Positions 7,467 through 62,700 are shown, numbered from the stretch's first letter. The stretch: DNA of 64,000 bases from Gammaproteobacteria bacterium (GCA_044445605.1 JBIOEA010000002.1:40060-104059), one strand, 5' to 3'. Notes: a model not told the origin generated them from the letters alone. Numbers and translations are program-made.

Positions 7467-8720
7467 CTACTTTTGCACCAGCGCATCAAATTCCGATCTA
7501 AAATGCTTGATAAAACTCAACACCGGCATCGCTGCCGCATCCGCCAATGCACAAATAGTGCGGCCCATCATTTTATTGGACACCGCTTGAAGCTTGTCCA
7601 AATCTTCTGATGTTCCTTCACCCTGCAGCACACGATGCAACATACGTGACAACCAACCCGTGCCTTCACGGCAAGGCGTGCATTGTCCGCAGGATTCTTC
7701 AAAATAAAATTCAGAGATGCGTGCCAACACTTTCACCATGTCTGTCGTATCGTCCATCACAATAACGGAGCCCGCGCCTAACATGCTGCCCGCTTTCGAC
7801 AAGGATTCATAATCCATGTTCACGTCCATCATGATGTGTGCCGGCAAAACAGGCACAGATGAACCACCTGGAATCACCGCCTTCAACGGACGATCAGTTA
7901 ACATGCCGCCTGCCATTTCTAGCAATGTTTTAAACGGTGTTCCCATCGGGACTTCATAATTACCAGGACGTTTCACGTGACCCGATACAGAAAATATCTT
8001 TGTACCACCGCTTTTTTCAGTGCCCATCTTGGCAAACCACTCTGCGCCCTTTTCCAAAATCACCGGCACAGATGCATAGCTTTCCGTGTTATTGATGATC
8101 GTAGGACGCCCATACAAACCAAAGTTTGCAGGAAAAGGTGGTTTGAAACGAGGTAAGCCCTTCTTCCCTTCGAGGGATTCGAGCAAGGCGGTTTCTTCTC
8201 CACAAATGTAAGCGCCAGCACCAATCGTATTGTGCAATTCGAAATCAACGCCACTACCCAAAATATTTTTGCCAATCAATCCAGCGTTGCGCGCTTCAGC
8301 CAGCGCTTTCTCGCATGCTTCAAATGGTTCAACATATTCACCACGAATATAGTTGTAGCCCAGCGTTGCGTTCAAGATGTACCCGGCGATGGCCATCCCT
8401 TCAATCAATTGATGTGGATTATAACGAAGAATATCCCGATCCTTAAATGTGCCTGGTTCGCCTTCGTCTGAATTGCACACCACAAATTTTTGCCCTTCGC
8501 GATGACGTGGCATAAAACTCCACTTCAATCCTGTCGGAAAGCCCGCGCCACCGCGGCCACGCAATCCAGACTTTTTGATTTCTTCAATCAATTCATCTGC
8601 AGAAGGTTTGTCTTTTAATATGCGACGCCAAACGGAATAGCCGCCGAGTGCTTCGTACGTTGCCAATGAAGCCGGATCTTGTTTATCCAGGGTGCGGAAA
8701 CAAACTTGGTTGATCAGCAT
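7467..8720 (-). CDS. nuoF: NADH-quinone oxidoreductase subunit F (NADH/FMN-binding, 4Fe-4S)
   Basis: 417 aa; [17 protein letters not shown] motif and Cys cluster ([12 protein letters not shown]); operon order. Confidence 0.9.
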
Positions 8721-9211
8721 GACCCCTCCCGTGTTTTCGCCAAAATCTCATCAATACGCTCTGGCGTTAAATTCTCATAATAAGTCTTGTCAACTTGCAT
8801 CGCCGGTGCGCCACCGCAAGCACCTAAACATTCCACGTGACGTAATGTGAATTGCTTGTCTTCGGTCGTTTCATTGAAATCGATCTTCAATGTTTTCTTT
8901 AGATGATCAACCACTTTCTCAGAACCACGCAACATGCAAGAAATGTTCGTGCAGACACAAATTTTATGCTGACCACGGGGTTTCAAATCGTACATGGAAT
9001 AGAATGTCGCGACTTCGTACACGCCAATAGGAGGCATGCCTAAATAATCAGCCACAGCATCCATCATTGGCGTGGATAAATACCCTTCTTTATCTTGCAC
9101 CCATGTCAACGCAGGAATCACCGCGGATCTTTTTTGATCAGCAGGAAACTTTGCTACCCACACATCAATCTCGTTTTTGAGAGCATCACTTAACAGATAT
9201 ACGTCACTCAT
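8714..9211 (-). CDS. nuoE: NADH-quinone oxidoreductase subunit E (2Fe-2S)
   Basis: 165 aa, thioredoxin-like 2Fe-2S protein with conserved Cys; operon order. Confidence 0.88.
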
Positions 9212-10461
9212 CAGCGATCTATCTCCCCAAATACTATGTCTTGCGTTCCGATAATAGTGACCACGTCAGATAACATGTGGCCTTTCACCATTTCATCCAA
9301 TGCCGCTAAATGCGAGAACCCTGCTGCGCGTACTTTCAAACGGTACGGTTTGTTCGCGCCGTCAGAGATTAAATACACGCCAAATTCGCCTTTCGGATGC
9401 TCGACTGCTGCGTACGCTTCGCCCGCTGGAATGCAGAACCCTTCCGAGAATAATTTAAAGTGGTGAATCATCGCTTCCATGTCATTTTTCATGACTTCAC
9501 GCTTCGGTGGCACCACTTTGACATCATCTGCCATCACAGGGCCAGGATTGATGCGTAACCAATCAATGCATTGACGAATAATGTGATTGGATTGACGCAT
9601 TTCGGCCATGCGGACCAAATAACGATCGTAACTGTCACCGGTTTTGCCGACAGGAATATCAAAATCAAGTTTGTCGTATACCGCGTAAGGTTGTTTTTTA
9701 CGTAAATCCCATGCAACACCAGAACCACGCAACATCGGGCCTGTAAACCCTAATGCAATCGCACGTTCTGCCGAAACAACACCAATGTTGACGGTACGCT
9801 GCTTCCAAATACGATTGTCGGTGAGCAATGTTTCATATTCATCGACACATTTAGGAAAACGATTCACAAAATCTTCAATGAAATCTAAAAATGAACCTTG
9901 ACGATTGGCATTGCGCCATTTCAACTCTTTTGCTTTGAATTCCGTGGGATTGTAAGGTGCCATGCGATCGGGCAAATCACGGTAAACACCACCAGGACGG
10001 TAATACGTGGCATGTAAACGTGCGCCGGATACAGCTTCATAGCAATCCATTAAATCTTCACGCTCACGGAATGCATACAAGAACATGGTCATTGCGCCCA
10101 CGTCGAGCGCATGCGCACCAATCCATAGGAGGTGATTCAAGATACGGGTGATTTCATCAAACATCACACGAATGTACTGAGCGCGGATCGGCGCTGTGAT
10201 GCCCAATAATTTTTCCATCGCTAATACGTAACCGTGTTCGTTACACATCATGGACACGTAATCTAAACGGTCCATGTAGCCAATGCTTTGATTGTAAGGT
10301 TTGGTTTCAGCCAATTTTTCAGTGGCGCGGTGCAATAACCCGACATGTGGATCGGCATGCACGACTGTTTCACCATCCAATTCAAGGATCAAGCGCAACA
10401 CACCGTGTGCCGCAGGATGTTGAGGACCAAAATTGAGGGTGTAATTCTTAATATCTGCCAT
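9211..10461 (-). CDS. nuoD: NADH-quinone oxidoreductase subunit D (49-kDa subunit, separate from NuoC)
   Basis: 416 aa; strong similarity to Nqo4/NuoD family (…[12 protein letters not shown]…); operon order. Confidence 0.9.
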
Positions 10462-11144
10462 TATTTACCCTCTTCTAGCAAGTAACGATTATCATCGCGG
10501 ATCACTTTTGGTACGAGTACACGCGGCTCAATGCTCACGGGCTGATACACCACACGTTGTTGTACTTCATCGTAACGTACTTCGACATAACCAGAGATGG
10601 GGAAATCTTTGCGGAATGGATGGCCAATAAAGCCATAATCCGTGAGAATACGACGCAAATCTGGATGCCCTTCGAACATAATGCCGAACAAATCATACGC
10701 TTCACGTTCAAACCAATTCGCAGAGGGCCAAATATCGTTCACGCTTTTGATGGTCAGGTCGTTATCGTCGACAAACGCTTTGACACGAATGCGATGGTTG
10801 TGGACTAAGGACAATAAATGATAGACAGCGGCAAAGCGCGGGCCGTTATCGCGTTTGACAACCATTACGCCACGGCTAAAACCCGTATTGGGCGCGGTGT
10901 CTGTTTTCCACTCATCTTGGCCGTAGGTGAGGTAATCCACGCCACAGACGTCGATAAGCTGTTCAAAGGCTAAATCAGCGGTATCGCGCAGTTTCAAACA
11001 AGCCGCATGGCAATCAGTGGCCTTGACTTCAACGGTCAGCTCACCGACGTGAACCGTCGTACTCACGACGGCATCGCCCAGTACTTTAATCACTCGTTCT
11101 TTTAATGTCTCGATGTTCATGCGTGAGCTCCCTTTACCGTGCAA
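10461..11144 (-). CDS. nuoC: NADH-quinone oxidoreductase subunit C (30-kDa subunit)
   Basis: 227 aa; operon position; not fused to nuoD. Confidence 0.85.
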
Positions 11145-11631: not shown

Positions 11632-11969
11632 TCATATATAAAGCCAATGGTCAGTAAACCTAAAAATATGCCCATTGCGATGAGAGGTGGCCAACCCAGC
11701 TTAGGGAAAACGACCGCCCAGGGGAATAAAAAGGCAATTTCAAGATCGAAAATGATGAAAAGAATGGCAACGAGGTAATAACGGACATCAAATTGCATGC
11801 GCGCATCTTCGAAGGGTTCGAAACCACATTCGTAAGGAGCGTCCTTTTCAACGCCTGGACGCGAGGGGGCTAATATCATCCCCATGAGGACCGGCGCAAC
11901 ACCCACTACTGCGGCAATCGCGATGAATACAATGACAGGAAGATAGTTTTCTAACATTTTGCGCCTCAC
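11601..11969 (-). CDS. nuoA: NADH-quinone oxidoreductase subunit A
   Basis: 122-aa 3-TM protein (…[13 protein letters not shown]…ECGFEPF…); first gene of the operon; true start may be the internal Met at 11957. Confidence 0.85.
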
Positions 11970-38534: not shown

Positions 38535-38632
38535 TTGTAGGGGCGAAACATTTTTCGCCCTTACAAAAATCCCCCGCCTCGGAATACTCGGCTGCCCCCT
38601 TTTCCCAAAGAGGGCCTAAGACATAGAAGGGC
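38535..38632. repeat. Composite REP-like intergenic repeat, copy 2 (between rplY and pth)
   Basis: TGTAGGGGCGAAACATTTTTCGCCCTTACA + AATCCCCCGCCTCGGAATACTCGGCTGCC + CCCCTTTTTCCCAAAGAGGG + CTAAGACATAGAAG, matching modules of copies 1 and 3. Confidence 0.8.
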
Positions 38633-46948: not shown

Positions 46949-49531
46949 CTACTTTCCACCGCTTTCATCTAGCAGCCATTTTAACATCAGCCTTTTTTTC
47001 AACACTTCCATCAGTGACAAATAGGTCAGCGTAGCTAGAACAAGAAAAATGAAATAACCCATAGGCAACGGCACAAAACCAAAAAGTGTCGCGAGAGGAC
47101 TAAATGGTAGCAAAACAGCGATCAAGACAATGGTGACCACACTGATGCTGAGTGCCATACTCGGTTTACTGCGCCAACAACGTTGAGCGGTTCTCACCAC
47201 AAAAATAACCAATACTTGCGTAGCAAGCGACTCAACAAACCAGCCGGTTTGAAATAAACTATCTGAAGCATGAAAAACCTTGATCATGACAAAAAATGTC
47301 AGCAAATCAAACACCGTTGTTATTGGACCCAAATAGAGCATAAACTTTCGCACAATATCAATACTCCATTGCCGAGGTTTCTGTATAAACACATCATCGA
47401 CATTGTCTGTTGCAAGCGAAATTTGTGAAATATCATAAAGTAAATTATTTAAAAGCAGCTGCGTCGCGGTAGCCGGCAAAAAGGGTAAGAAAAAAATGGA
47501 ACTTGTCATGCTGAGGGTGTTTCCAAAATTTGAACTGGTCCCAACAATGAGGTATTTCATCACATTGACGAGTGACTTCCTCCCCTCGGTGATGCCATTC
47601 AATATGACTTTTAGACTCTGTTCCAGCAGGATAATGTCAGCCGCTTCGCGTGCCACATCTACGGCATCGGACACAGAAATACCCACATCTGCGCATTTCA
47701 GTGCCGGAGCATCATTAATCCCATCCCCCATGTACCCAACAACGTACCCACGCGCACGTAATAACGTGATAATACGTTGCTTCTGTGCCGGTGTCACTCG
47801 GGCGAACACTTGAATTTCTTCGGCTAATTTCCCCAGTGCACTGTCTGAAATGTTGTCGAGATCGCCACCCATCAAAATAGTTGTCGCATCAATGCCTACC
47901 GCATTTGAAACATAACGCGCCACTAAATCATTATCGCCCGTCAAAATCTTGATGCTGACGCCCCGCGAATACAGTTCCTGTATCACTTCTGCAACATCAT
48001 TTAACGGAGGATCCATAAATGTTACCAAACCTGCAATGATCAGATTGTTTTCATCGTCTGCATGATAATCAGATTGCGGCGGCATTTCTCGGTACGCTAC
48101 GGCAAGCACGCGGTAACCTTGAGCACTTTCAGTCTGAAATAACTGATTAAATTGTCGCAACGCTTCGTCATTAATCACTTCAGGTTTTCCGTCGACAAGG
48201 TAGTGCGTGCATATGGGAAGAATCAGTTCAGGTGCGCCTTTCGTGATCAGCAAGTGTGTTCCGCTTTTATCAACCACCACGCTGGCTCTGCGTCGAATAA
48301 AGTCAAAAGGGATTTCATCCATCTTGATATAAGATTGCATGTCAGGATGATGATGCCTTAAAATGGCAGCATCGAGCGGATTAATATCCACCCTGTTCAA
48401 CACAGCCGTATCCGCGGGATTATTGATCCCCGTTCCATAAAGGCTATTCAGATACGCAAGCAATAAAACGTATTCTGAATGCTCCCCGGACAAACTGATT
48501 GATTCTCCGAGTTCCATTTTCCCTGCGGTTAAGGTTCCCGTTTTATCACTGCATAAAATATTTATACTGCCAATATTTTGAATAGCAGATAAATTTTTAA
48601 CGATAACTTTTCCCTTGGCCATTTTTAACGCACCTTTGGCAAGCGTCACCGTCGTGATCATGGGTAACAATTCGGGAGTCATCCCTACGGCCAAAGCTAA
48701 CGCAAAAAGCAAAGATTCAATGGCACTTCGTTCCAAATACAGGTTGATGATAAATACAAACAGCACGACAAAAAACACAAGCTTCATGATAAAAAGACCA
48801 AACCGCACCATGCCTTTATCAAATTCAGTCGGCGGTGGCGTCATATTGATACGCGAGGCAATCGCTCCAAATTCTGTACGGGATCCCGTGCACATGACCA
48901 CCGCCATCCCAGTGCCACTCACAATGGATGTGCCGGCAAAAACAGCATATTTACATTCAACAATATTATTGGGAATGACTCTGTTTGTCGGAATTTCCTT
49001 TTCCACAGGTAATGACTCACCCGTTAACGCCGCTTCTTGAACATGCAGATCCCTTGCTTTGAGCAGATATGCATCTGCAGGCACCATATTTCCGGCCACC
49101 AGTCCAATAATGTCGCCGGGAACCAGTGCCGTGGCAGGAATGTCAACCCAGGTACCCTCCCGTAATACATGGCATGTGGCCGCCACTTGTTCTTGCAGCC
49201 GTTTGGCGGCAACCAAAGAACGGTGGCTTTGAATATAATCCAGGCCAACACTGAGCATCACAATGATGATAATGATTAAAGCATTACTCATGCCGCCCGT
49301 TACTGCCGACACGAAGGCAGCAATCAATAATATGGCGACTAAAGGATTCGCTGCATGCGAAAGAGCAATCAGCACATGTGAACGGTTTCTTTTAGGAATT
49401 ATTTCGTTTGGACCATAGGATACCCGTCTATTCTGAACCTCTTGATCACTGAGGCCCATTTCGGACGTACCCAATGCCGCCAAGGCTTGTTGGGGGTTTA
49501 ACGATAAGATTTTTTGGCTGGATTCTGGCAT
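46949..49531 (-). CDS. mgtA: Magnesium-translocating P-type ATPase (MgtA/MgtB type)
   Basis: 860 aa; P-type ATPase motifs TGES, CSDKTGTLT, MTGDNDLVA, GDGINDAPAL; overall similarity pattern to MgtA. Confidence 0.8.
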   Translation of the reverse strand: MPESSQKILSLNPQQALAALGTSEMGLSDQEVQNRRVSYGPNEIIPKRNRSHVLIALSHAANPLVAILLIAAFVSAVTGGMSNALIIIIIVMLSVGLDYIQSHRSLVAAKRLQEQVAATCHVLREGTWVDIPATALVPGDIIGLVAGNMVPADAYLLKARDLHVQEAALTGESLPVEKEIPTNRVIPNNIVECKYAVFAGTSIVSGTGMAVVMCTGSRTEFGAIASRINMTPPPTEFDKGMVRFGLFIMKLVFFVVLFVFIINLYLERSAIESLLFALALAVGMTPELLPMITTVTLAKGALKMAKGKVIVKNLSAIQNIGSINILCSDKTGTLTAGKMELGESISLSGEHSEYVLLLAYLNSLYGTGINNPADTAVLNRVDINPLDAAILRHHHPDMQSYIKMDEIPFDFIRRRASVVVDKSGTHLLITKGAPELILPICTHYLVDGKPEVINDEALRQFNQLFQTESAQGYRVLAVAYREMPPQSDYHADDENNLIIAGLVTFMDPPLNDVAEVIQELYSRGVSIKILTGDNDLVARYVSNAVGIDATTILMGGDLDNISDSALGKLAEEIQVFARVTPAQKQRIITLLRARGYVVGYMGDGINDAPALKCADVGISVSDAVDVAREAADIILLEQSLKVILNGITEGRKSLVNVMKYLIVGTSSNFGNTLSMTSSIFFLPFLPATATQLLLNNLLYDISQISLATDNVDDVFIQKPRQWSIDIVRKFMLYLGPITTVFDLLTFFVMIKVFHASDSLFQTGWFVESLATQVLVIFVVRTAQRCWRSKPSMALSISVVTIVLIAVLLPFSPLATLFGFVPLPMGYFIFLVLATLTYLSLMEVLKKRLMLKWLLDESGGK

Positions 49532-49877: not shown

Positions 49878-51383
49878 ATGAAGTTCCAAAAGATAATCAA
49901 TACGCTACTCGAACTCAATGCAAAAATGAATAGACCAAAATTAGTCATGACTCCTGCTCAAGCTGAAGATATGATCACCACGAAAGCCGAGCTCAAAGCC
50001 CTCGCCAAGGATGAGCATACGAACTCAATAGCGATAAAGGTTTTTTTATATGAACGTTGGGAACGCATCAAAAATCAGTCATCTAATTATCATCGTTGGC
50101 CGTTAAGCCCCATGAATGAGATTTGCATCGAACTGGCAAATGCGATTAACCCTTACGCATTAACGGCACTTATCATGCCAAAAAAGCACCCACGGCAGAC
50201 GCGCAAGGGGCTCACGAAACGCGACCTGTACACGCATGACGAAAAGGGTTTTACACCTTTCTATTATGTCGTTATACAAAATGATATCGATTCGCTGGAA
50301 GACATGGTTCATGTGGCAGGCAAAGACATTTTAAAATATAAATTTGGCCCTGAAGAATTTCATACGCCACTGACAACAGCGGCGCTTCACAGCAATGAAA
50401 CAATGCTTAAAAAAATAATTGAAATGTTAGGGCCGGATGCATTTGCTCCTCTCGGAGAGCAGCCTCTTCATTGGCTTGCTTATCAAGAATATAGCGTGAA
50501 TACATGTAAAATGGCAGACATATTGATTGAGGAGGCCGCGGCTGCAGGAGCTGATTGTTTTTTGAATACTCAAGGCGCTCATCGCAATTTCTGGGGGAAA
50601 ACCCCGTTCGAGATTGCCTTGTATACCAATAACTGGACGTTCTTCGCTGGCTTTTTAATTCGTAGGGGAGCGGATGTCAACATCAATGACGAGCTGCATC
50701 AAGCCTGGAAAAAAAATAGTTGCCTACTCCCCGCTCTTATCGAGCGAAAAGATATTGGCACCTTGGCAAAGAAAAATGACAAAAATTCAATCATGCTTGA
50801 CCATCTCCTCCGTGATACGCTGAATCATTATAGAAATAGTCATTCTTTTTCCGTCTCAGGCATTAGAAACCTGGTTGAAGCCGGCGCCCAGATTAAACCG
50901 AGTGATTGCGATTTAACTTGCGGCCTACTCAAATGGCAGGGAGGCATTAGCCTTGCAGCACTTCTCTCACAAAATGACATATTTGATCAATGCGAATTTA
51001 AAGAACTGTGCGAGATTCTAAGACCAGATGAACACACTACATCACGTTTAATTATTCTGTACGCCCGCGGCCTTGTCAGCAGACTCTCCCTCTTTGATCC
51101 ATCAACACTTCCCACCATGAGCAGCGAACTTCAACTTGAATTAAAAGATGTAGACACGGCCATTGAAACCATCGAAAAAGTGGATAGACTTCGGATTGAA
51201 ATACTCAAGGTCCAAAAAATCAATCGCGAAAAACCGAACTTTTCCTTTTCCATTTTCAGCTTCTCAAGCAAATTAACCGGCGACTATGCCAGGCTTCCAG
51301 AGAATTTGAGGGGGCCGTTGATAGGGTCGTCTCATCCCGACTTCAACATGAACGGCGACAAAAAAATCACCGCAACTCTGTAA
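49878..51383 (+). CDS. Ankyrin-repeat protein (501 aa), effector-like
   Basis: Several ANK repeats (…GFTPFYYVVIQNDIDSLEDMVHVAG…, …TPLTTAALHSNETMLKKIIEMLG…, …KTPFEIALYTNNWTFFAGFLIRRGADVN…); eukaryote-like domain in a bacterial genome. Confidence 0.75.
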   Translation: MKFQKIINTLLELNAKMNRPKLVMTPAQAEDMITTKAELKALAKDEHTNSIAIKVFLYERWERIKNQSSNYHRWPLSPMNEICIELANAINPYALTALIMPKKHPRQTRKGLTKRDLYTHDEKGFTPFYYVVIQNDIDSLEDMVHVAGKDILKYKFGPEEFHTPLTTAALHSNETMLKKIIEMLGPDAFAPLGEQPLHWLAYQEYSVNTCKMADILIEEAAAAGADCFLNTQGAHRNFWGKTPFEIALYTNNWTFFAGFLIRRGADVNINDELHQAWKKNSCLLPALIERKDIGTLAKKNDKNSIMLDHLLRDTLNHYRNSHSFSVSGIRNLVEAGAQIKPSDCDLTCGLLKWQGGISLAALLSQNDIFDQCEFKELCEILRPDEHTTSRLIILYARGLVSRLSLFDPSTLPTMSSELQLELKDVDTAIETIEKVDRLRIEILKVQKINREKPNFSFSIFSFSSKLTGDYARLPENLRGPLIGSSHPDFNMNGDKKITATL

Positions 51384-52190: not shown

Positions 52191-52274
52191 ATGATATTGT
52201 TAGGAAAGTCCCCCCTCCTATGGGTGCGGCAAAAAAACAGCTTATCTCCTCCTAGTATATGTGAAGAAATCCAA

Positions 52275-53543
52275 ACCATGACAACTCATCTTAATGATTT
52301 ACAAAGCAAATCTGTCCAAGAACTTATTACCATTGCCAATAAAGGCCATGCCGATAACATTGGACGAGTACGTAAACAAGACCTCATTTTTAGCATCCTG
52401 AAAGACTACGCCCAGAACGGCGAAGAAGTCATCGGTGATGGCGTATTGGAAGTCCTGCAAGACGGCTACGGCTTCTTGCGCTCCCCTGAAGCCTCCTATT
52501 TGGCAGGTTCAGATGACATCTACGTCTCCCCTGCTCAAATCAGACGGCTAGGCCTCCAAACAGGCGACAACGTCATGGGCCCCATCCGTATGCCTAAAGA
52601 AGGCGAACGCTATTTCGCTCTCCTCAAAGTGGACCAAGTCAATTTTGAGCCTGCAGAAAACTGCCGCAATAAAGTATTGTTCGAAAACCTTACCCCATTG
52701 TTCCCGAACCAACGTTTACGCATGGAACGTGGCAATGGCTCGACAGAAGACATTACTTCTCGGATCATTGACCTGATTGCCCCCTGCGGCAAGGGCCAAC
52801 GTGCATTGATCGTATCGCCGCCGAAGGCCGGTAAGACAATGATGCTGCAAAATATCGCGCAATCGATCGCAGAAAATCATCCCGAATGCTACCTCATCGT
52901 ATTGTTGATCGACGAACGTCCTGAAGAAGTGACGGAAATGGAACGCTCAGTACGCGGCGAAGTCGTTGCATCCACGTTTGATGAACCACCTGCTCGTCAC
53001 GTTCAAATCGCTGAAATGGTTATCGAAAAAGCTAAACGCTTGGTCGAACATAAACATGACGTCGTGATTCTTCTGGATTCGATTACCCGCTTGGCACGTG
53101 CCTACAATGCGGTCGCACCATCATCAGGTAAAGTCCTCACCGGCGGTGTGGATGCTAATGCATTACAACGTCCCAAACGCTTCTTCGGTGCTGCACGTAA
53201 TATCGAAGAAGGCGGCAGCTTGACCATTATCGCCACTTGCCTCGTCGATACGGGATCCAAAATGGACGAAGTTATTTACGAAGAGTTTAAAGGTACCGGT
53301 AACATGGAATTGCATTTAGAACGCCGTATTTCTGAAAAAGGCGTGTTCCCTGCGGCGAATATTAATTCGAGCAGTACCCGTCGTGCAGACTTGATTGCCA
53401 AACCCGAAGAATTGCAAAAAATTACGATCCTTCGTAAATTGCTGCATTCAATGGAACCCTTGGCTGCCATTGAGTTCTTGATCGAGCGCTTGCGCAATAC
53501 CAAGACCAATGACGAGTTCTTTGACTCGATGAAACGGCAATAG
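52275..53543 (+). CDS. rho: Transcription termination factor Rho
   Basis: Collinear with E. coli Rho from Met1 (…VSELITLGEN… / …[10 protein letters not shown]…, RNA-binding and P-loop [13 protein letters not shown] regions highly conserved); the track ORF extends 28 codons upstream. Confidence 0.95.
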
Positions 53544-53554
53544 GGATACCAGCC

Positions 53555-53630
53555 TTCTATGTCTTAGGCCCCCTTTGGTAAAAGGGGGCAGCCTGTAGGG
53601 ACGAAACATGTTTCGCCCCTACAATAGAGG
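53555..53630. repeat. Composite REP-like intergenic repeat, copy 3 (reverse orientation; downstream of rho)
   Basis: Reverse complement TGTAGGGGCGAAACATGTTTCGTCCCTACA + GCCCCCTTTTACCAAAGGGGGC + CTAAGACATAGAAG matches modules of copies 1 and 2. Confidence 0.8.
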
Positions 53631-53640
53631 TTAAATTTTT

Positions 53641-55407
53641 ATGCCAATACAACTCCCAAAAACCGTCTGGGCCTTTATCTGGCACTATGTACGCGACAAA
53701 AAATGTATATTAGCCGGGTTTGTGCTAATTGCATTGGTCTGGGCCATTGAATTATCACTATCACCTTACCTCATCAAAGATATTGTGGATACCGTGGTCA
53801 TGCATCACCAAGACCATGCGATGCTTATCCAAGCCGTCATGTGGCCTGCATCCATTTATGCCAGCATGACATTACTCCTCAATCTAAACTTTCGACTTTA
53901 TGATTATCTAGGGTTAAAGATGTACCCGGCGATCAAATCCAGAATGACGCAAGATATGTTTGACTATTTATTAAAGCATTCTCATGGTTATTTCCAAAAT
54001 CATTTCGCAGGGTCTCTGACCAAAAAAATCTTTGACATGATCACCGATTCAGAGCGCATTATACTCATTCTGAATGAATTTTTTTACGCACGCGCATTCG
54101 CATTGATCATTGCCAGCGCGATGTTATGGAAAGTCGTTCATCCAACGCTGGGTATTATTCTGTTTGTATGGACATCCGCATTCATTTATTGCTCCTACCT
54201 TTCTGCCAAATACGCAGCGAAACATGCAAAATTTGTCTCTGAATGCTATTCAAACATGTCTGGCGTGATATCAGATTCTGTCTCGAACGTCATGAGCACC
54301 AAATTGTTTTACAATTTATCTCATGAAAGTAATCGAGTATGGCACTCACTGACAGCGTTGGTGAATGCTGATCGCACACTCTTATGGTTCAATTTGAAAG
54401 CGCAGTTTTTGCAGGGATTATCTGTCTTCCTTCTCGTCATCATCATGTTATACAACCTGCTCGAAGGCGTTGGCAAAGGTTGGGTCACACCAGGCGATTT
54501 TGCGATGGTATTAACCCTGATTGCCTGGATGACATCCGCTGTATGGGAAATGGGCGAAAAAATGTTAGACCTCTCTCGAGCGACAGGCTCATGCCAACAA
54601 GCATTAAGTTTCATCATGGAGCCACATGAGATTGTCGACGCGCCCAATGCAAAATCCCTCGTTATCAACGAAGGCAAGATTGTGTTTGACCACGTATCTC
54701 ACGCCTACCCTGGCAGCAAAATTATTTTCAATGAGTTATCGGTTGAGATCAAGTCCGGTGAAAAAGTTGGATTGGTCGGCTATTCCGGTGGCGGCAAATC
54801 CACCTTCACTCGCCTTATTTTGCGTCTGATGGATATTAAGTCCGGTCAAATACTGATTGATGGTCAAGATATTTCGAAAGTCACCCATGAATCACTCACC
54901 AAAAACATTGGCACGATTCCCCAAGAAACGGAATTATTCCATCGCTCCATCATGGAAAACATTCGTTTTGCCAAACCCGAGGCCACTGACGCCCAAGTCC
55001 TGGAAGCCGCCGAAAAAGCCTGTTGCGACGAATTCATTAAAGAATTGCCTGAGGGCTATCAATCATTGGTAGGCGAACGCGGTGTTAAATTATCGGGCGG
55101 CCAGCGTCAACGGATTGCCATCGCGCGGGCCTTCCTGAAAAACGCTCCTATCTTATTACTGGATGAAGCAACTTCTGCGTTAGACACCATGACGGAACGC
55201 CTGATTCAGCGCAGCCTTCATGCCGTCATGGAAGGCAAAACCACCATTGTGATCGCTCACCGATTATCCACCTTGAAAGACATGGACCGCATCTTATTTT
55301 TTGATCAAGGTGTCATCGTAGAGCAAGGATCGCTGAGCGAATTGCTAGCCAACCCTAGTGGTAAGTTTTACCAACTATGGCATATGCAAGCAGAGGGAGT
55401 TATTTAA
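53641..55407 (+). CDS. ABC transporter, fused permease/ATP-binding exporter (MsbA/PrtD-like, 588 aa)
   Basis: N-terminal 6-TM domain; C-terminal NBD with Walker A GYSGGGKST, signature LSGGQRQR, Walker B ILLLDEATSALD. Confidence 0.8.
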   Translation: MPIQLPKTVWAFIWHYVRDKKCILAGFVLIALVWAIELSLSPYLIKDIVDTVVMHHQDHAMLIQAVMWPASIYASMTLLLNLNFRLYDYLGLKMYPAIKSRMTQDMFDYLLKHSHGYFQNHFAGSLTKKIFDMITDSERIILILNEFFYARAFALIIASAMLWKVVHPTLGIILFVWTSAFIYCSYLSAKYAAKHAKFVSECYSNMSGVISDSVSNVMSTKLFYNLSHESNRVWHSLTALVNADRTLLWFNLKAQFLQGLSVFLLVIIMLYNLLEGVGKGWVTPGDFAMVLTLIAWMTSAVWEMGEKMLDLSRATGSCQQALSFIMEPHEIVDAPNAKSLVINEGKIVFDHVSHAYPGSKIIFNELSVEIKSGEKVGLVGYSGGGKSTFTRLILRLMDIKSGQILIDGQDISKVTHESLTKNIGTIPQETELFHRSIMENIRFAKPEATDAQVLEAAEKACCDEFIKELPEGYQSLVGERGVKLSGGQRQRIAIARAFLKNAPILLLDEATSALDTMTERLIQRSLHAVMEGKTTIVIAHRLSTLKDMDRILFFDQGVIVEQGSLSELLANPSGKFYQLWHMQAEGVI

Positions 55408-55482
55408 ATAATCAAAGGTCGCTTTTTTCCAAATAAGTGATAGACTTATAGGGTTGTTTATCGTCATCGAAGGGAACTCGTT

Positions 55483-56619
55483 GTGAATGGACTCTACATC
55501 ATCGCCCTGAAACTGCTTGCCAATGATAAGGGTAAATTTTTTACCTTGATCGTGGGTGTTTCGTTCGCTGTTTTTTTGATGATGCAAATGACCTGTATGT
55601 TTTCCGGGCTGATGCGCCGCACAGGTTCAGACATTCTGAATATCAATGCAAAAATGTGGGTCATGGACCCATCGCTTAATTCTCAATCCGATAATATACC
55701 CATGCCCGATTACATTCTCGATGCTGTCCGCAGTATTAAAGGCGTTAAATATGCCGTCCCACTCTATACAGGCGGCGGTTTAGCGAAGCTAAGCGATGGG
55801 CGCTATCAAGCTGTCAATATCCGCGGGCTTGATGATGCGACCTTATTTGGTCGCCCCCAAATGCTCAGCGGCGACATCATCAATATTTATAATGATGATG
55901 CGTATATCGCCATTAAAGACTCTGAGTTCGAAAAACTTGATAATGCCAAAGTGGGTACAACGTTTGAAGTGAATGACCATCGCGGCGTGATTGTCGGCAT
56001 TGGTAAGGCACTGGTCGGAGGCCTCTTCGGAACACCTACCTTGTACACCACTTATCGACGTGCCATAGCCGTTTTACCTCACACGCGCTTCACGCTTTCG
56101 TTTATATTGGTTGAACCTAAATCTGAAGCCGATGTTAAGTATATTCAAAAAGAAGTAAAAAAACTTAACTACGTCGCCCTTACCAAAGATGAATTTTTCA
56201 ACAAAAATAGGGATTATTATTTATATAAAACTGGGCTCGGCACCAATGTGATGATCATGACGATCATCAGTTTTATCGTTGGCCTATCGATTGCTGGCCA
56301 GACATTTTATACATTCGTGATCGAAAATTTACAAGAATTTGGCGCACTGAAAGCAATCGGGGCTAAAAAAAAGGAATTGATTTCCATTATTCTCTTTCAA
56401 TCGGCGGTAGTCGGTTTTTTAGGCTATGGATTTGGCATCTTTTTATCATCAACCGTCATTGCATTGGCAAAGTTGAGACTACACAATTACGCCGCCCAGG
56501 TTACTCTTGAAAACATGTTTCTGACCTTTTTAATGGTATTGGTCATTGTCGCGTTTTCCAGCTATCTAGGCGTTCGTAAAGTCATTACCATTGATCCATT
56601 TGATATATTCAGGGGCTAA
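55483..56619 (+). CDS. ABC transporter permease, FtsX/MacB-DevC-like
   Basis: 378 aa; N-terminal TM, large periplasmic domain, C-terminal FtsX-like 3-TM bundle. Confidence 0.7.
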   Translation: MNGLYIIALKLLANDKGKFFTLIVGVSFAVFLMMQMTCMFSGLMRRTGSDILNINAKMWVMDPSLNSQSDNIPMPDYILDAVRSIKGVKYAVPLYTGGGLAKLSDGRYQAVNIRGLDDATLFGRPQMLSGDIINIYNDDAYIAIKDSEFEKLDNAKVGTTFEVNDHRGVIVGIGKALVGGLFGTPTLYTTYRRAIAVLPHTRFTLSFILVEPKSEADVKYIQKEVKKLNYVALTKDEFFNKNRDYYLYKTGLGTNVMIMTIISFIVGLSIAGQTFYTFVIENLQEFGALKAIGAKKKELISIILFQSAVVGFLGYGFGIFLSSTVIALAKLRLHNYAAQVTLENMFLTFLMVLVIVAFSSYLGVRKVITIDPFDIFRG

Positions 56620-56621
56620 GC

Positions 56622-57305
56622 ATGATACTCGAGGCTAGGCATATCAGAAAATGGTTTGGTACGGAGGACAGCAAAACGTATGCGCTTAATGACATCAGCT
56701 TCGATGTCGACTACGGTGAAATGCTTTATATTGTCGGACAATCTGGATCAGGTAAGACTACACTGCTCAGTATTATTTCAGGTATTCTCAGGCCCAATGA
56801 AGGGGAAATAACAGTTGAAGGGAAAAACATCTGGCATTTAAATGATAATGAGCTATCCGAATTTCGTTCGAAAACGATCGGATTTGTTTTTCAAGATTTT
56901 CATTTATTCAATACATTAACATCGAAAGAAAATGTGGCTGTTCCCCTTATTCTTCAAAAAAAGCCGATGGACATCGCACTCCTAGAAGCAGAAAAACGTC
57001 TTGAAATCGTTGGCCTAAAACATCGTATGGATCTGATGCCAAATCGACTCAGCATAGGCGAGCAACAACGCGTAGCCATAGCGAGAGCCATCATCACAGA
57101 ACCGGATTTATTGATCTTTGATGAACCCACTGCCTCATTGGATGGAGAAACAGGAAAGCGAATCATCTCGTTCATCAAAGAACAAATTTTAACACCCAAA
57201 AGGGCTATCATCATTGTCACACATGATAATCGTATTTATAATTTTGCGACACGCATTATTAAAGTGGAAGATGGAAGAATAGTTGATGCAGCGGGGATCC
57301 AATGA
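56622..57305 (+). CDS. ABC transporter ATP-binding protein (MacB/DevA/LolD-like)
   Basis: Walker A GQSGSGKTT, signature LSIGEQQRVAIARA, Walker B LLIFDEPT; 227 aa. Confidence 0.85.
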   Translation: MILEARHIRKWFGTEDSKTYALNDISFDVDYGEMLYIVGQSGSGKTTLLSIISGILRPNEGEITVEGKNIWHLNDNELSEFRSKTIGFVFQDFHLFNTLTSKENVAVPLILQKKPMDIALLEAEKRLEIVGLKHRMDLMPNRLSIGEQQRVAIARAIITEPDLLIFDEPTASLDGETGKRIISFIKEQILTPKRAIIIVTHDNRIYNFATRIIKVEDGRIVDAAGIQ

Positions 57306-58237
57306 ATACTCGGAAATTATTTATGTTAGCAACAGGAGGCATTATCGCCGGACTGTTCAGCGTTTTCTTTTACAATGAAAATTTAAAAGCACAAGAACCC
57401 TTATCTGTCAGTTATAACCCATATGATAAGGGCATTTATGCATCTGGCATTATTGAAAGTTTTCAACTCAATGGTTCAAATATTAATATATTCCCAGAAG
57501 TATCGGGTAGAGTCTCAAGCATCATGGTTTCAGACGGACAGCAAGTCAAAAAGGAGGATGTGCTATTAGTGATTCATCATTCCGTACAAACAGCCATTGT
57601 AGAAAAAGACAAAGCGAATGTTAAGTTGGCACAAGATAATTTGATCACAGTTCAAGATCAATATGACAAACTTAAGAAAGCTTATGATATTAATCCTAAA
57701 TCAGTCAGTAAAAATGCCCTAGACAATGCCAACAATGCAGTCATTTCGGCCAAACAAAACATCTCAGTGGCTCAAGCACAACAAGATTCTGATCAAGCAT
57801 TGCTGGATGAATACACGATCACCTCACCTGTTGATGGCGTCGTTTTGCGGGTTGTCCCTGCTGTGGGTGATTATGCATCTCCTGTCGTCGGAACTTATGA
57901 CACTTATACGCAAGGTAGTCTACCCATTATTCAAATAGGGCAAGTCACACCTTATTTGCAAGTCAGAGTGTATGTTGACGAAATCTTGACACCACAACTA
58001 CCCGAATCGTCCAAACTTGAAGCAACACTGTTTGTACGCGGGATGGACAATAAATCGATTCCTTTAAAATATGTCAACATGCAACCCTATACTATTCCCA
58101 ATATACAATTATCTGATCAACGCAGCGAACGTGTAGATGTCAGGGTATTGCCGATCATTTTCCAATTTGAAAAACCGACGGATATTAATTTATATCCTGG
58201 GCAATTAGTGGATGTTTATATCAAAGGTAAACCATGA
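57302..58237 (+). CDS. Periplasmic adaptor / membrane-fusion protein (HlyD/DevB-like)
   Basis: 311 aa; N-terminal TM anchor, coiled-coil segment, beta-barrel-like C-terminus; translationally coupled to flanking genes. Confidence 0.7.
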   Translation: MNTRKLFMLATGGIIAGLFSVFFYNENLKAQEPLSVSYNPYDKGIYASGIIESFQLNGSNINIFPEVSGRVSSIMVSDGQQVKKEDVLLVIHHSVQTAIVEKDKANVKLAQDNLITVQDQYDKLKKAYDINPKSVSKNALDNANNAVISAKQNISVAQAQQDSDQALLDEYTITSPVDGVVLRVVPAVGDYASPVVGTYDTYTQGSLPIIQIGQVTPYLQVRVYVDEILTPQLPESSKLEATLFVRGMDNKSIPLKYVNMQPYTIPNIQLSDQRSERVDVRVLPIIFQFEKPTDINLYPGQLVDVYIKGKP

Positions 58238-59703
58238 ATTATTCTACACGATTAATGCTCATACTGTGCACTGGGGTAATCATACTCCCCGGCTGCACGC
58301 TCTATCAAAAACCAGAGGTGCCGGTAATCAATCACCCTGAGGAATTCAAAGTAAACATAAAGAAAGACGAATTCCCAGAGCTCAATGATCGTTGGTGGGA
58401 AAATTTTAACAATCCACAGCTCAATAAACTAGTCGAACAATCCATCAAGCATAATTATAGCTACCAAGTGGCACTGACAAACATTGATATTGCCCAAACC
58501 TACGTTGATATCAGTATGACAGGTCTTTTCCCCCTGGTAGGCGGGGATTTTTCATCTTCGCGAAACAAACGCATTGTTAACGTTGGGACAGATATTTCAT
58601 CAGCGCCGCAGTTAACGACGGGTGGTGCTGGCTTACCGTTTAACTTGAATCTGATCACTGCCACGGCAGCTTACGAAATCGATGTCTGGAATTCCGTTCA
58701 CAATGCGGTTGATCAAGCTAAATCAAACAAACTGAGCGTTGAAGGCAATACAAATGTCGTTAGGTTAACCCTTATCAGTTCCGTCGTTAATACGTATTAT
58801 GAGATCATGGCACTGTCTCAAGATATCCAAAACTTAAAAAAGCAGCTCAAAGCGGCCCGTGAAATGTTAGCGTTATTTAAAATTCAGTATCAGTCAGGCC
58901 TCATTGATGAGAGCCAAGTTTATCTGGCAAGCACGGAATTAGAAAACATTTCGAACACGCTCAATCTCAATAAAAAACAAAAAGAAATCCTTGAATATGG
59001 CCTGGCGTATTTGATCGGGGAATACCCCGAAAATTTCTCTATCAAGCCTGAAGGCCATATCAATGAACTTCACTTTGCTCAGTTAATTCCTGAAGGGATC
59101 CCTTCACATGTCATTGGAATGCGCCCAGATGTTCAGTCTGATTTAGGTCAAATTTTAGCGTTCGGTTATTTGCAAAAACAAGATATCGCGGCCTTTTTAC
59201 CTAATTTTACAATGACAAGCAGTTATGGTTATGCCAGCAACGTTTTGTCTCAATTGATCAAAAATAGCAACGTATTATGGAACTATGGCATCAACGTTGC
59301 GCAAACGTTTTTTAATTACCCTGCTTTGATCAGTCAATATCAACAGGCAAAACTCCAATACCAGTCGGCCGTCTATGCCTATCAAAACACAGTACAGAAT
59401 GCGTTTTTTGAGGTGGACAGTGCGTTGGTTTCTTATCAAAAAGATAGCATGATCATGCACTCCCTCCGTACAGAACAAGAGAACGCGAATGAACTTTTCA
59501 AGATTGCCAAAGCGAAGTATCATGCAGGATTAACGGATTACACAGATTATTTAACGAATAATATCAATGAGTTACAGAGCACATACAATCTAACCAATCA
59601 ACAGTTAGTCGTGGTGCAGGATATTATCCAAGCGTATAAATCGATGGGATTAGGGGTTCAACCCACCAAGCCTGTTGAATCCGATGTAGCGAGCGCCTCA
59701 TGA
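58234..59703 (+). CDS. Outer-membrane efflux lipoprotein (TolC/NodT-family OMF)
   Basis: Lipobox ILPGC; two OEP-type repeats; 489 aa; last gene of the export operon. Confidence 0.75.
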   Translation: MNYSTRLMLILCTGVIILPGCTLYQKPEVPVINHPEEFKVNIKKDEFPELNDRWWENFNNPQLNKLVEQSIKHNYSYQVALTNIDIAQTYVDISMTGLFPLVGGDFSSSRNKRIVNVGTDISSAPQLTTGGAGLPFNLNLITATAAYEIDVWNSVHNAVDQAKSNKLSVEGNTNVVRLTLISSVVNTYYEIMALSQDIQNLKKQLKAAREMLALFKIQYQSGLIDESQVYLASTELENISNTLNLNKKQKEILEYGLAYLIGEYPENFSIKPEGHINELHFAQLIPEGIPSHVIGMRPDVQSDLGQILAFGYLQKQDIAAFLPNFTMTSSYGYASNVLSQLIKNSNVLWNYGINVAQTFFNYPALISQYQQAKLQYQSAVYAYQNTVQNAFFEVDSALVSYQKDSMIMHSLRTEQENANELFKIAKAKYHAGLTDYTDYLTNNINELQSTYNLTNQQLVVVQDIIQAYKSMGLGVQPTKPVESDVASAS

Positions 59704-59791: not shown

Positions 59792-62700
59792 ATGGGTATT
59801 AATGCACAACAGCTCAAAACTAACTTTATTACTCTAGATTACAAAAATGAGATCCTGAAATACCCTCAACTCTGGATAGAGCTCTTAGAAATCTCTTCAC
59901 GGAAGGCATATGAGTACATAGACTTATTTAGCGATAATGAATCATTACAGCTTATACAAAATTCACAAACACAAGCAACCCTTCGCGCAACACTCTTCAC
60001 AAAATATCTAAACTATATTGTCGACTTTTCCGACCCATTTGATTCAAGTACAATCATCACCGAAGCACACATGAAAAAAATGGTAGAAAGATGTTTGAAA
60101 GACGAAGTCTGGGATAACGATAGAGTAGAAATCCATTATCTAAACCATCACACCTCGTTTTTTTATGAAGAAACGGGTCAATATATTATGCAAAAATCTA
60201 CCCAAGGTTCTAACCAAGTCGAACTTAATCTCGGCCACACAAACATACATAAACATCTGAAATATAATAGTCAAGAAATTCGCAAAAGCGACACCAAAAC
60301 AGATTTTTTCTCCGCCTATAACATTGAGCATGAAAGAGCCGAAGCTATGGCCAGTAAATGCATAGCAATATTAGATAAATCAAATGAAGGGTTTTTGGAT
60401 GCTGAATTTCAACGATTCATAAATGGTGACATCCGCCGTGCCATGACCCAGTTAGCAAAACTTGGACAATATGATCTCTTGATGGCGATTTTCAAGAAGC
60501 TATCCCCTGCCGTTGCAGTAGATGAACTTACCCGTGGGGGCACTGACAGCGTCTTTGCCATTCTCGTTAATGCACTGCCAGAAACGCGTGTCATTCTTGG
60601 CAACCTTATAAATCATGCCATAGGCATAGAAAATATGACAATGAAGGAATTTAATCATAAGATTCTGCCGGTAACGCTCAATACTATTAAAGAACGTTCC
60701 GAATCGTTATATCAAAAACTAACAGACTCTTCATCCTCAAAACCAACATCCACACAAAAAGATGAAAATGAGTTGGAATTAAATAATATAAAAGTCTATG
60801 AGAATGGCAGCACGTTCTGGGATGGCATGGATTTAGATGAATTCTGTAAAGTGCCTTACCTTATTCCAGAGTTCATCAAGCACGATCTGATCAAAAATCC
60901 CGAAAAACTATGCTCGATTGCAAAAAAGAATAAATATCTAGCATGCAATTATATCAGCGCACTCAGCGACGAGCAGGCAAAAATACTCGCCAACAATGCA
61001 TCCGACAACGTGTTGATTGATCTTTTTAATCACACAGTAAAACATACAGTAATGATTCATCAAAAAGTTAATGACATGTACAAGTTGCTGAAACATGCGA
61101 ACAATTCGGTTTGTGAGGCAGTGTTCGGCGAGCTAACTCATCATGACTGGACAAGAATTTTAAAAAACAAAGCATGTCCACTTGTAAACAAATTAGTAGA
61201 GACGGTAACCAATGATAATGCATCTCGCCTTCTTGGTAAGCTAGACTTTAATTTATTAAATTTATTGTCAGGCGATTCCTTTTTCAGTGGTGAGGAAATA
61301 CATCTTTATCTAAAAGCACCTTCTTTTTATGGTATCAATTACGACAATTTGAACGATAAGTCGTCTATTAACTTTTTTATTCATCATATACTCACGGCAG
61401 CAGAAAGGGATAATAAACTTACCCCTGGCAAGCAAGATGTCGTATGCACCCTCATCACTCAATTGCTTGCAGGCGACGCCTCAATCTTTAACCTATTTGT
61501 TAATAAGGAGGCAAACTCATTAGGACTTATATTTTCTGCTTTCAAATTTCATCAGCTCATGACTAATCAGCTTCCTGAAAGAACATTTCAGGCTTTGCAA
61601 TTAGACACATGGTTAGCGCTGCCCAAAAAAGCTATTGGCAACTCTTATAATACAGCCATTCAATTACTCAATTTTGTTTCAACTGAAAATGCTGCATCGC
61701 TTTTGGGTGGGCTTCAATTTGATTTGCTTAACGCCCTGACGGAACAAGATTTATATGATGAAGCACAAAATCTTTTTGTAAAACTACCCAGTCAAAACAT
61801 TCCACCGAAGCTAATCAAATGGGTTGAAGACAAAATCAAAGCATCCCCTAAAGCAACGATTGAAAGCCTCGGCATTGAAAAAATACTCATGGATGCCATT
61901 AGCGCTTCAAAGGCAGCAAAAATAGATGCTAGGAAGTTTTTAGCTGAAGCTCAGGAAAACCCCGCTGCTGCCTGCAAATTCTTACAGTTACAAAGCGATA
62001 GAATCATTGAAGCACTCGTCGGTAGCATCCATTCCATCCAGGATAAGTATTTTTTCGAACGCATTATCCTTGCTTTTGACGAACACATGCCGATTAAATT
62101 AATGATGAAAATTGATTCAAACATTATTTTTTCGTTTTCACAATTTCACGATTCAGATACTACGACCCCTGCGATAGAAAGTCTCTGCATGAATTATTTA
62201 AAAAATGATCGGTTCGACATGATCTGTGCATTATTGAAACATGCCTCTCAAGTTGATCTATGGCATCTTCATTTTACTGTACTTTCTCAAGCTTCTTTTA
62301 TCAAGAAATCAATCGAAATGAATTGGGAGCGTAACATCATCGATGCGTTGCGTATGCATACTGATAAGGATACAAATCAAATATTGCTTACCTATATTGA
62401 GAATGTTATTGAGCACTTTTCTGCTGATTATCCCTATAGCCCAAAGAGTTTCGAAGTCTTTCTGCAAAGTTTGGATCCAGAATGCGTTCCCTTATTAAAA
62501 CCGATTAACAGTTTTAATGACCTCATGTCAAAGAATAAACTGCTACATGCTAAAGTGCTTTATCAAATGAATCCAACGTATTTTAACGATAATGCTGAGC
62601 GCCCAGCCATCATTAAACTCAAGGCACTGTACCCCGATCTGAATAGCGATGCTAAACCCATTCAACAGTCGACCAGTGAAATGGATATTCTTAGGGCAGA

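Follow-up and report, generated by a model that had tools for sequence, protein, structure and literature searches.

Positions 55483–59703 of a 64,000-nucleotide (nt) stretch of gammaproteobacterial DNA (GCA_044445605.1, JBIOEA010000002.1:40060-104059; hereafter called the window, whose numbering is used throughout) very probably encode a self-contained tripartite efflux pump of the type VII ATP-binding cassette (ABC) class, which represents a widespread and conserved but unnamed subfamily. The four genes specify, in this order, a permease, a separate ATPase, a periplasmic adaptor, and an outer membrane factor (OMF) channel (Table 1). Their domains, the permease fold, the conservation of the four-gene cassette across distant lineages, and the absence of conserved neighbors were established directly. 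The window derives from the chromosome of an uncultured bacterium of the order Legionellales, the closest relatives with a name being Fluoribacter dumoffii, Legionella steigerwaltii, Tatlockia, and the Coxiellaceae. Its permease, its exporter, and its first orphan protein each have a 100% identical counterpart in one metagenome-assembled genome, while exact-sequence queries with the permease and the ATPase retrieved no record. A preliminary description of this DNA had grouped the pump with an ABC exporter gene directly upstream into one tightly coupled five-gene export operon. Open reading frame (ORF) calls, Pfam, and NCBIfam recovered all five genes with the domains it had assigned to them, but the combined evidence presented below supports a functional unit of only four.

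Permease and ATPase

According to Pfam, the permease consists of a MacB_PCD domain (residues 21–227) followed by an FtsX domain (residues 257–372). Its AlphaFold2 model (predicted local distance difference test, pLDDT, 75) comprises an N-terminal amphipathic helix, the first transmembrane helix (TM1), a periplasmic domain of about 200 amino acids (aa) with mixed alpha/beta structure, and TM2–4, the helices spanning residues 18–48, 252–281, 296–332, and 342–369. The modeled protein, with four TM helices and a large periplasmic domain inserted between TM1 and TM2, thus has the predicted architecture of a type VII ABC permease (MacB/FtsX fold). Foldseek searches with the permease retrieved LolE, MacB, Spr0695, HrtB, YbbP, YtrF, BceB, and FtsX at 11–16% identity, with E-values of 1e-12 to 1e-15 for LolE, MacB, Spr0695, and HrtB; at these uniformly low identities the structural comparison cannot discriminate between MacB, LolE, HrtB, Spr0695, and YbbP as the class of the permease. 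In a comparison of the family permease profile with PDB, MacB was the best match (31 bits). The ATPase was assigned to ABC_tran (Pfam, E = 3e-37), and its Walker A (GQSGSGKTT), signature (LSIGEQQR), and Walker B (LLIFDEPT) motifs, as read from the sequence, are intact. It is thus predicted to be the cognate ATPase that a type VII ABC transporter requires.

Neither protein reached the cut-off of a curated MacB, Dev, or Lol model. Among the curated models, those of the cyanobacterial Dev system performed best, DevC (TIGR01185) for the permease and DevA (TIGR02982) for the ATPase, and both matches stayed below cut-off (62.3 bits with a cut-off of 290, and 212.2 bits with a cut-off of 295.8, respectively). 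The permease scored 32 bits with the MacB model (NF007826; cut-off 966) and 28 bits with LolCE (TIGR02212; cut-off 362), and the ATPase scored 208 bits with LolD (TIGR02211; cut-off 308).

Adaptor and Outer Membrane Channel

The adaptor begins with a single hydrophobic membrane anchor. Its scores were below the cut-offs of RND_mfp (TIGR01730; 77 bits, cut-off 95), DevB (TIGR02971; 24.6 bits, cut-off 129), and MacA (NF008606; 24.5 bits, cut-off 342), and the best match in PDB, again MacA, reached 34 bits and covered residues 41–187 only. A single-sequence structure model had a pLDDT of 47 and was confident only in the two helices of the alpha-hairpin (residues 88–130 and 137–170). Weak Pfam matches did not settle the presence of a membrane-proximal domain.

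Across the family (loci L001–L085), the hairpin segment falls into discrete length classes of 75, 89, 113, and 127 aa. The adaptor of the window belongs to the shortest class, relative to which each arm of the 127-residue class is extended by an insertion of about 26 residues. No clear relation between hairpin length and channel type was found among the family loci. Since both extreme classes occur in Legionellales together with the same channel type, the pump appears to tolerate large changes in the reach of its adaptor.

The channel exceeded the cut-off of the NodT model (TIGR01845; 241.1 bits, cut-off 210.05). Its OEP domain is recognized by Pfam in two stretches, and the N-terminus has the lipobox VIILPG-C21 (L18-P-G-C21). 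By its model score and lipobox cysteine, the protein is a predicted OMF lipoprotein of the NodT type. These assignments support the proposal of the preliminary description, namely a tripartite pump of MacB/DevCAB style in which the ATPase is split off, the adaptor is short, and a NodT lipoprotein channel is part of the set.

Distribution and Autonomy of the Cassette

Genomes (one per species) were scanned with a permease profile, and the best 80 loci, 78 of them non-redundant, were kept; gene order in these loci was determined by tblastn with the proteins of the window. The order permease–ATPase–adaptor–channel was found in about 65–68 of the 78 non-redundant loci. The lineages possessing the cassette include the Legionellales, Nitrospirota/Thermodesulfovibrionia, Chlorobiaceae, Desulfurella, Acidithiobacillus, Gallionellaceae/Ferrovaceae, Geobacteraceae, Syntrophales, Steroidobacteraceae, Ralstonia, and Caballeronia. 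Considering all loci, the permease (57–86% identity to the window protein) and the ATPase (56–86%) are the most conserved components, followed by the adaptor (40–74%) and the channel (20–70%). Outside the Legionellales the corresponding values are 57–63, 56–65, and 40–57% for permease, ATPase, and adaptor, and 20–26% for the channel, except for about 40% in Desulfurella. Orthologs from the genus Legionella share the gene order and the protein sizes of the window (379/225/310/497 aa in F. dumoffii).

A HMMER profile search of 1.84 billion representatives clustered at 50% identity yielded 338 matches at E ≤ 1e-30. One of these was a full-length match with 587 bits, and the next full-length matches had at most 308 bits. 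As a single full-length representative scores above 310 bits, the core family amounts to little more than one 50%-identity cluster, even though it spans several phyla. A literature search found no paper on this exact cassette.

No further gene accompanies the four. ORF clustering revealed no conserved partner in the 78 loci, the next largest neighbor family being present in nine of them, and a Pfam analysis of 130 immediate neighbors found no family in more than five. Ten tightly adjacent genes identified by Pfam were unrelated housekeeping or mobile genes (for example Kup, PurB, endonuclease V, Usp, kinases, and transposases). The cassette is an autonomous four-gene unit.

Besides complete cassettes, solitary permease copies with about 60% identity were observed in six loci (L031, L022, L042, L047, L048, L064), where no ATPase, adaptor, or channel was detected downstream; L047 had nothing beyond a weak ATPase-like match, which lies on the opposite strand at a distance of about 3 kb. 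Desulfurella acetivorans harbors both forms, a complete cassette (L052) and a solitary permease (L031, CP007051 59540-76673).

Proposed Mechanism

The following model extends the family fold to stoichiometry, mechanotransmission, periplasmic entry, and substrate class, all of which we infer. Two copies of the 227-aa ATPase would drive a dimeric permease (378 aa and four helices per subunit), whose large periplasmic domains would move upon ATP binding and hydrolysis (mechanotransmission). The substrate would be taken up from the periplasm or from the outer face of the inner membrane, pass through a ring formed by the membrane-anchored 311-aa adaptor, and leave the cell via a trimeric NodT lipoprotein channel. 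The four pump genes are translationally coupled, and a promoter for them is probably located within the 75-bp spacer upstream of the permease gene. The 588-aa exporter would function as an independent inner membrane exporter, which stands beside the pump in this narrow lineage only. Because the cassette travels without biosynthetic genes, the most likely substrate is a small compound that is amphipathic, envelope-derived, or stress-related, rather than a dedicated product. The system is best described as working like MacAB-TolC or DevBCA-HgdD while being a member of neither, that is, as a distinct and unnamed subfamily.

Three findings weigh against this interpretation. Firstly, the adaptor model is too poor to define the domain make-up of this protein, which may lack a membrane-proximal domain. 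Secondly, transcriptional read-through from the exporter gene into the pump genes is possible, as both lie on the same strand and no terminator separates them. Thirdly, the entire block from rho to the orphan gene is syntenic in one close relative (locus L086), so that a lineage-specific functional link is possible.

Gene Layout of the Region

All five ORFs of the export region are located on the plus strand (Table 1), and their position after rho and a repeat resembling repetitive extragenic palindromic (REP) elements and before two tandem orphan genes agrees with the preliminary description. Direct reading of the sequence verified the two ATGA overlaps that it had reported, between ATPase and adaptor genes (57302–57305) and between adaptor and channel genes (58234–58237), and revealed a gap of 2 bp between the permease stop and the ATPase start. 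The exporter gene ends 75 bp before the permease gene. Tight coupling, claimed for all five genes, thus holds for the last four and does not extend to the exporter.

Table 1. Features of the export region and its surroundings in the window.
Feature	Position	Strand	Description
rho	52191-53543	+	upstream of exporter gene
rho–exporter spacer	53544-53640	+	two GC-rich hairpins; REP-like palindrome at 53595-53622
ABCB-type half-transporter exporter	53641-55407	+	588 aa; ABC_membrane + ABC_tran (Pfam)
Exporter–pump spacer	55408-55482	+	75 bp; candidate extended -10 promoter
Permease	55483-56619	+	378 aa; GTG start; MacB_PCD + FtsX
Separate ABC ATPase	56622-57305	+	227 aa; ABC_tran
Periplasmic adaptor (membrane fusion protein)	57302-58237	+	311 aa; Biotin_lipoyl_2 + HlyD_D23
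NodT-type lipoprotein OMF channel	58234-59703	+	489 aa; OEP; TIGR01845
Orphan protein 1 (outside pump)	59792-62872	+	1026 aa; probable start ATG 59792
Orphan protein 2 (outside pump)	62886-64000	+	cut by window end; probable start ATG 62886

The 97-nt spacer between rho and the exporter gene folds into two strong hairpins (minimum free energy -39.1 kcal/mol, z = -4.3). It contains a 28-nt GC-rich REP-like palindrome, GTAGGGACGAAACATGTTTCGCCCCTAC, which occurs in intergenic positions at 53595–53622 and 38537–38564 (0 occurrences expected by chance), and a second hairpin, GGCCCCCTTTGGTAAAAGGGGGC, lies directly upstream of the copy at 53595. The hairpins of this spacer are a probable terminator or insulator after rho. 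The rho ORF has 450 aa when counted from the first ATG, and the gene call in L086 has 421 aa; the 29 additional N-terminal codons align with L086 (97% identity over 450 aa), and the start of rho given in Table 1 is tentative.

Elsewhere, the window holds a nuo operon, a gene for an MgtA-type ATPase, an ankyrin-repeat protein gene, and several genes for large proteins without family match. A gene run at 7467–11144 that resembled lolCDE by size was found to be nuoC–F.

The Upstream ABC Exporter

Based on its sequence, the upstream exporter is predicted to be a generic ABCB-type half-transporter (type IV fold), which presumably forms a homodimer. Its relatives in PDB are ABCB1/ABCB19, TM288, Atm1, and Sav1866. 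The earlier designation as MsbA/PrtD-like did not hold, as all curated models remained below cut-off: MsbA_rel (346 bits, cut-off 780), MsbA (TIGR02203; 338 bits, cut-off 602), the MsbA equivalog (NF008381; 252 bits, cut-off 867), HlyB (TIGR01846; 308 bits, cut-off 726), and PrtD (TIGR01842; 196 bits, cut-off 510). An identification as the lipid A flippase MsbA or as PrtD was rejected on these grounds.

Orthologs of the exporter with 54–58% identity are present in L. pneumophila and in Coxiellaceae. In one L. pneumophila genome the gene is located among MerR/TipAS regulators, acetyltransferases, APH kinases, and beta-lactamases, in another beside a Tn3-family transposase, and in a relative with 69% identity it adjoins a large helicase-like gene. 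These contexts suggest a role of the exporter in xenobiotic efflux.

The preliminary description had treated exporter and pump as one functional unit, and such a unit could operate as a two-step relay, in which the exporter brings a compound out of the cytoplasm into the periplasm, from where the MacB-type pump transports it across the outer membrane. Both genes share one strand and are separated by 75 bp, and the spacer (55408–55482) contains no terminator-like hairpin (fold versus shuffled sequences, z = -0.6). The adjacency is also kept in the closest relative, locus L086, which shares 97% identity in rho, 85% in the exporter, 86% in the permease, 86% in the ATPase, 74% in the adaptor, and 70% in the channel; a 6.1-kb contig encoding an exporter with 88% and a permease with 84% identity probably has it as well. 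However, no ABCB-type exporter was found beside the cassette in any of the 80 scanned loci, where the exporter query produced only a cross-match of its ATPase domain to the cassette ATPase. In another relative, whose permease is still 85% identical, asd is located upstream instead and a glycosyltransferase gene downstream, and the exporter orthologs of the 69%-identical relative and of L. pneumophila occur in the different contexts described above. Moreover, biosynthetic genes are lacking nearby, and the conserved spacer carries a promoter-like motif. We therefore regard a relay as unlikely, and the apparently unusual five-gene combination as a consequence of how genes are arranged locally in a single narrow lineage.

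The first 55 or so nucleotides of this spacer (55408–55462) are almost identical to positions 11756–11815 of L086, where the encoded proteins are about 85% identical, which suggests a conserved regulatory element. This stretch contains a candidate extended -10 element, TGaTAGACT (55438–55446; TG at 55438–55439, TAGACT at 55441–55446), which may represent the promoter of the pump. Promoter and terminator scans across the region gave counts that were not above those of shuffled sequence.

Relation to Dev- and Lol-Type Systems

A second alternative is that the cassette encodes an exporter for a glycolipid or another envelope lipid, similar to DevBCA-HgdD. DevC (62 bits) and DevA (212 bits) are the best curated matches, and DevBCA likewise combines a split ATPase with a permease of about 380 aa and relies on an OMF. 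None of the three Dev models comes near its cut-off, however, the gene order differs, and the lineages that possess the cassette are not cyanobacteria. Furthermore, genes for glycolipid, polyketide, or glycosyltransferase functions are not conserved near the cassette in the 78 loci. An equivalent of the Dev exporter consequently seems improbable.

A housekeeping lipoprotein sorter of the LolCDE type, to which the FtsX/MacB_PCD architecture, the LolD-like ATPase (208 bits), and the presence of LolE among the top Foldseek matches might point, is effectively refuted by the scores below both model cut-offs (28 versus 362 bits for LolCE, 208 versus 308 for LolD), by the adaptor and OMF genes, which are coupled to the ATPase gene here and absent from Lol systems, by the patchy distribution of the cassette across phyla, which is not universal in Gammaproteobacteria, and by separate Lol genes in a related genome. 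The orthology to lolCDE-type housekeeping genes that the preliminary description had named as the finding that would speak against its proposal was hence not encountered. The related genome (L088) encodes a genuine pair of LolCE (508 bits) and LolD (316 bits), and it probably carries the cassette too, as a 79%-identical permease is on record that apparently belongs to it, although this was not located in the L088 locus. The coexistence of both systems in this probable cassette carrier distinguishes the cassette from Lol.

The Downstream Orphan Proteins

Two tandem orphan genes follow the channel gene. Orphan protein 1 (isoelectric point 5.9) has no signal peptide, membrane segment, or GGxGxD repeats. 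Orphan protein 2 has a full length of 773 aa in the record of the metagenome-assembled genome, and the part inside the window is 62% identical to orphan protein 1 over 374 aa. Both genes are preceded by the same 20-nt leader, TGAAGGGGTATTGAATATGG, which includes a ribosome-binding site. Among 5.8 billion proteins, orphan protein 1 matched only itself and its 773-aa tandem paralog, and tblastn detected a 43%-identical homolog at the same position in L086 (16155–16985). Judged by these comparisons, the orphan family appears restricted to a narrow clade and seems to evolve much faster than its neighbors (43% versus 70–97% identity). The orphans are lineage-specific and unrelated to the pump. Ser, Thr, and Asn are abundant at their C-terminus.

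According to the preliminary description, the adjacent proteins might be secreted by a type I-like route, which would involve the exporter, the pump, or both. The orphan genes do start about 90 bp after the channel gene on the same strand, and a homolog occupies the same position in L086. Yet the proteins have neither the GGxGxD repeats of the RTX (repeats-in-toxin) type nor a membrane segment, nor the signal peptide required for loading into a MacB-type pump; as such pumps load from the periplasm, a protein without Sec signal is an unlikely substrate. The proposed inspection of the orphans for C-terminal secretion signals was negative for GGxGxD/RTX motifs, and the sequence alone could conceal a C-terminal signal of a non-RTX kind. 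Exporter and adaptor do not form an HlyB/HlyD-type pair, as they fail the HlyB, PrtD, and HlyD models (HlyD, TIGR01843, 25 bits, cut-off 209), and hundreds of genomes have the cassette without these orphans. The rapid divergence and the ankyrin-repeat neighbor would rather fit effector-like proteins. All in all, secretion of the orphans by either transporter is very improbable. From the ankyrin-repeat neighbor and the Legionellales setting, the most economical guess is that the orphans may be Legionellales effectors.

The ankyrin-repeat protein (49878–51383, plus strand, 501 aa) has a 40%-identical homolog in L086. Large proteins without NCBIfam match are encoded at 12006–16583 (minus strand, 1525 aa) and 22450–24600 (plus strand, 716 aa). 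Being eukaryote-like or orphan in character, these genes are typical of Legionellales effector repertoires.

Hints to Function

Members of the family with 57–60% identity are also found on megaplasmids or chromids of Ralstonia, Paraburkholderia, Burkholderia, and Cupriavidus. In R. wenshanensis (L093, p56D2), the cassette is preceded by genes for Usp, BON, flavodoxin, TraR/DksA, and a PAS kinase/regulator pair and followed by mgtA. The cassette of Burkholderia sp. JP2-270 (L095, p2) lies beside BON, BCAM0308 family, FtsH, Hsp20, Usp, and nitroreductase genes, and four further Burkholderiaceae loci contain Usp, PAS kinases, P-type ATPases, and PhaC. This gene content is reminiscent of the Burkholderia low-oxygen-activated (lxa) locus, in which low oxygen raises the expression of an ABC/adaptor/outer membrane gene set (BCAM0302-0305) 4- to 80-fold (PMC3721108). 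The lxa loci of B. contaminans and B. multivorans list a second set, whose annotations are outer membrane lipoprotein, HlyD, an "antimicrobial peptide" ATPase, and a permease, and the published four-gene ABC/adaptor/outer membrane sets include WR30_RS16710-16725 (PMC4981469). BCAM0302-0305 and WR30_RS16710-16725 are candidate orthologs of the cassette, to which they were likened by annotation and neighboring genes only. The Legionellales copy differs from the lxa locus in that it is not situated in a low-oxygen island.

The window also encodes an MgtA-type P-type ATPase (46949–49531, minus strand) about 6 kb upstream of the pump. In seven scanned loci and in R. wenshanensis, an MgtA-type ATPase with 40–45% identity to this protein is encoded no more than 8 kb from the cassette. 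These loci include L036, L058, L067, L069, L081, L082, and L093 and represent Acidithiobacillus, Chlorobiaceae, Ralstonia, Caballeronia, and a further proteobacterial metagenome-assembled genome; a different type III ATPase is found near the cassette in L008, L026, and L027. For a gene that is approximately single-copy, this proximity seems to exceed chance, a judgment made without a computed expectation, and the association seems recurrent but loose. The Usp, BON, and MgtA neighbors suggest a stress-related role of the pump. Going further, we tentatively consider, at rather low probability, that this unstudied conserved family uses its invariant periplasmic domain to handle a universal envelope-derived or stress-linked substrate, contributes to persistence under hypoxia or cation stress, and is perhaps fed by the exporter in the present Legionellales lineage.

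The locus itself matters little, being an ordinary efflux cassette whose five-gene appearance stems from the gene order of a narrow lineage. The subfamily, by contrast, is widespread and highly conserved, lies outside every curated model, has no solved structure nearer than about 15% identity, and in Burkholderiaceae appears to occupy loci with strong induction at low oxygen. Once its substrate is identified, the subfamily would join the few characterized type VII ABC pumps with a defined function, and this might also be relevant to how intracellular or hypoxic bacteria survive, as with the probably paralogous Lit pump of L. pneumophila (see below).

Comparison with Known Systems

Type I secretion systems (HlyB/PrtD-HlyD-TolC) differ from the region described here, which encodes neither an ABC protein of the HlyB/PrtD family nor an adaptor of the HlyD family. 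A precedent for a relay exists in Pseudomonas, where pyoverdine is handled by the ABCB-type exporter PvdE and subsequently by PvdRT-OpmQ, a MacB-type pump equipped with an OMF of its own. PvdT represents the fused form of MacB, and the pvd genes are part of a siderophore biosynthesis locus. In the window, by comparison, biosynthetic genes are missing, and the adjacency of exporter and pump is confined to a narrow lineage.

DevBCA-HgdD of heterocystous cyanobacteria has in common with the cassette a split ATPase, a permease of about 380 aa, an adaptor, and an OMF, but the three models are below cut-off, the gene order is another one, and the cassette has no link to glycolipid synthesis genes. 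With MacAB-TolC of E. coli, Aggregatibacter, and Acinetobacter it shares the type VII fold (four helices, large periplasmic domain), a membrane-anchored adaptor (MacA being the best PDB match), and the tripartite assembly with an OMF. Like MacAB-TolC, it probably also works by mechanotransmission and admits its substrate from the periplasm. In contrast to MacB, whose ATPase is an N-terminal fused domain, the ATPase of the cassette is a separate polypeptide, and the permease has 13–16% identity to MacB in structural alignments and fails the MacB model. Moreover, the cassette includes a dedicated NodT channel instead of relying on the shared TolC, and its adaptor is 60 aa shorter.

A system of similar composition is LitOPAI (Legionella infectivity transporter, lpg2925-lpg2922) of L. 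pneumophila. This MacB-type pump is likewise encoded by four genes, among them those for a split ATPase and a dedicated OMF, and it has no effect on the sensitivity to erythromycin or LL-37 (PMC11559062). In its published description the order of the genes is reversed (channel–adaptor–ATPase–permease), and channel, adaptor, and permease have 542, 381, and 415 aa, compared with 489, 311, and 378 aa in the window. Since the cassette orthologs from the genus Legionella keep the gene order and protein sizes of the window, Lit is probably a paralogous system, set apart by its published gene order and protein sizes.

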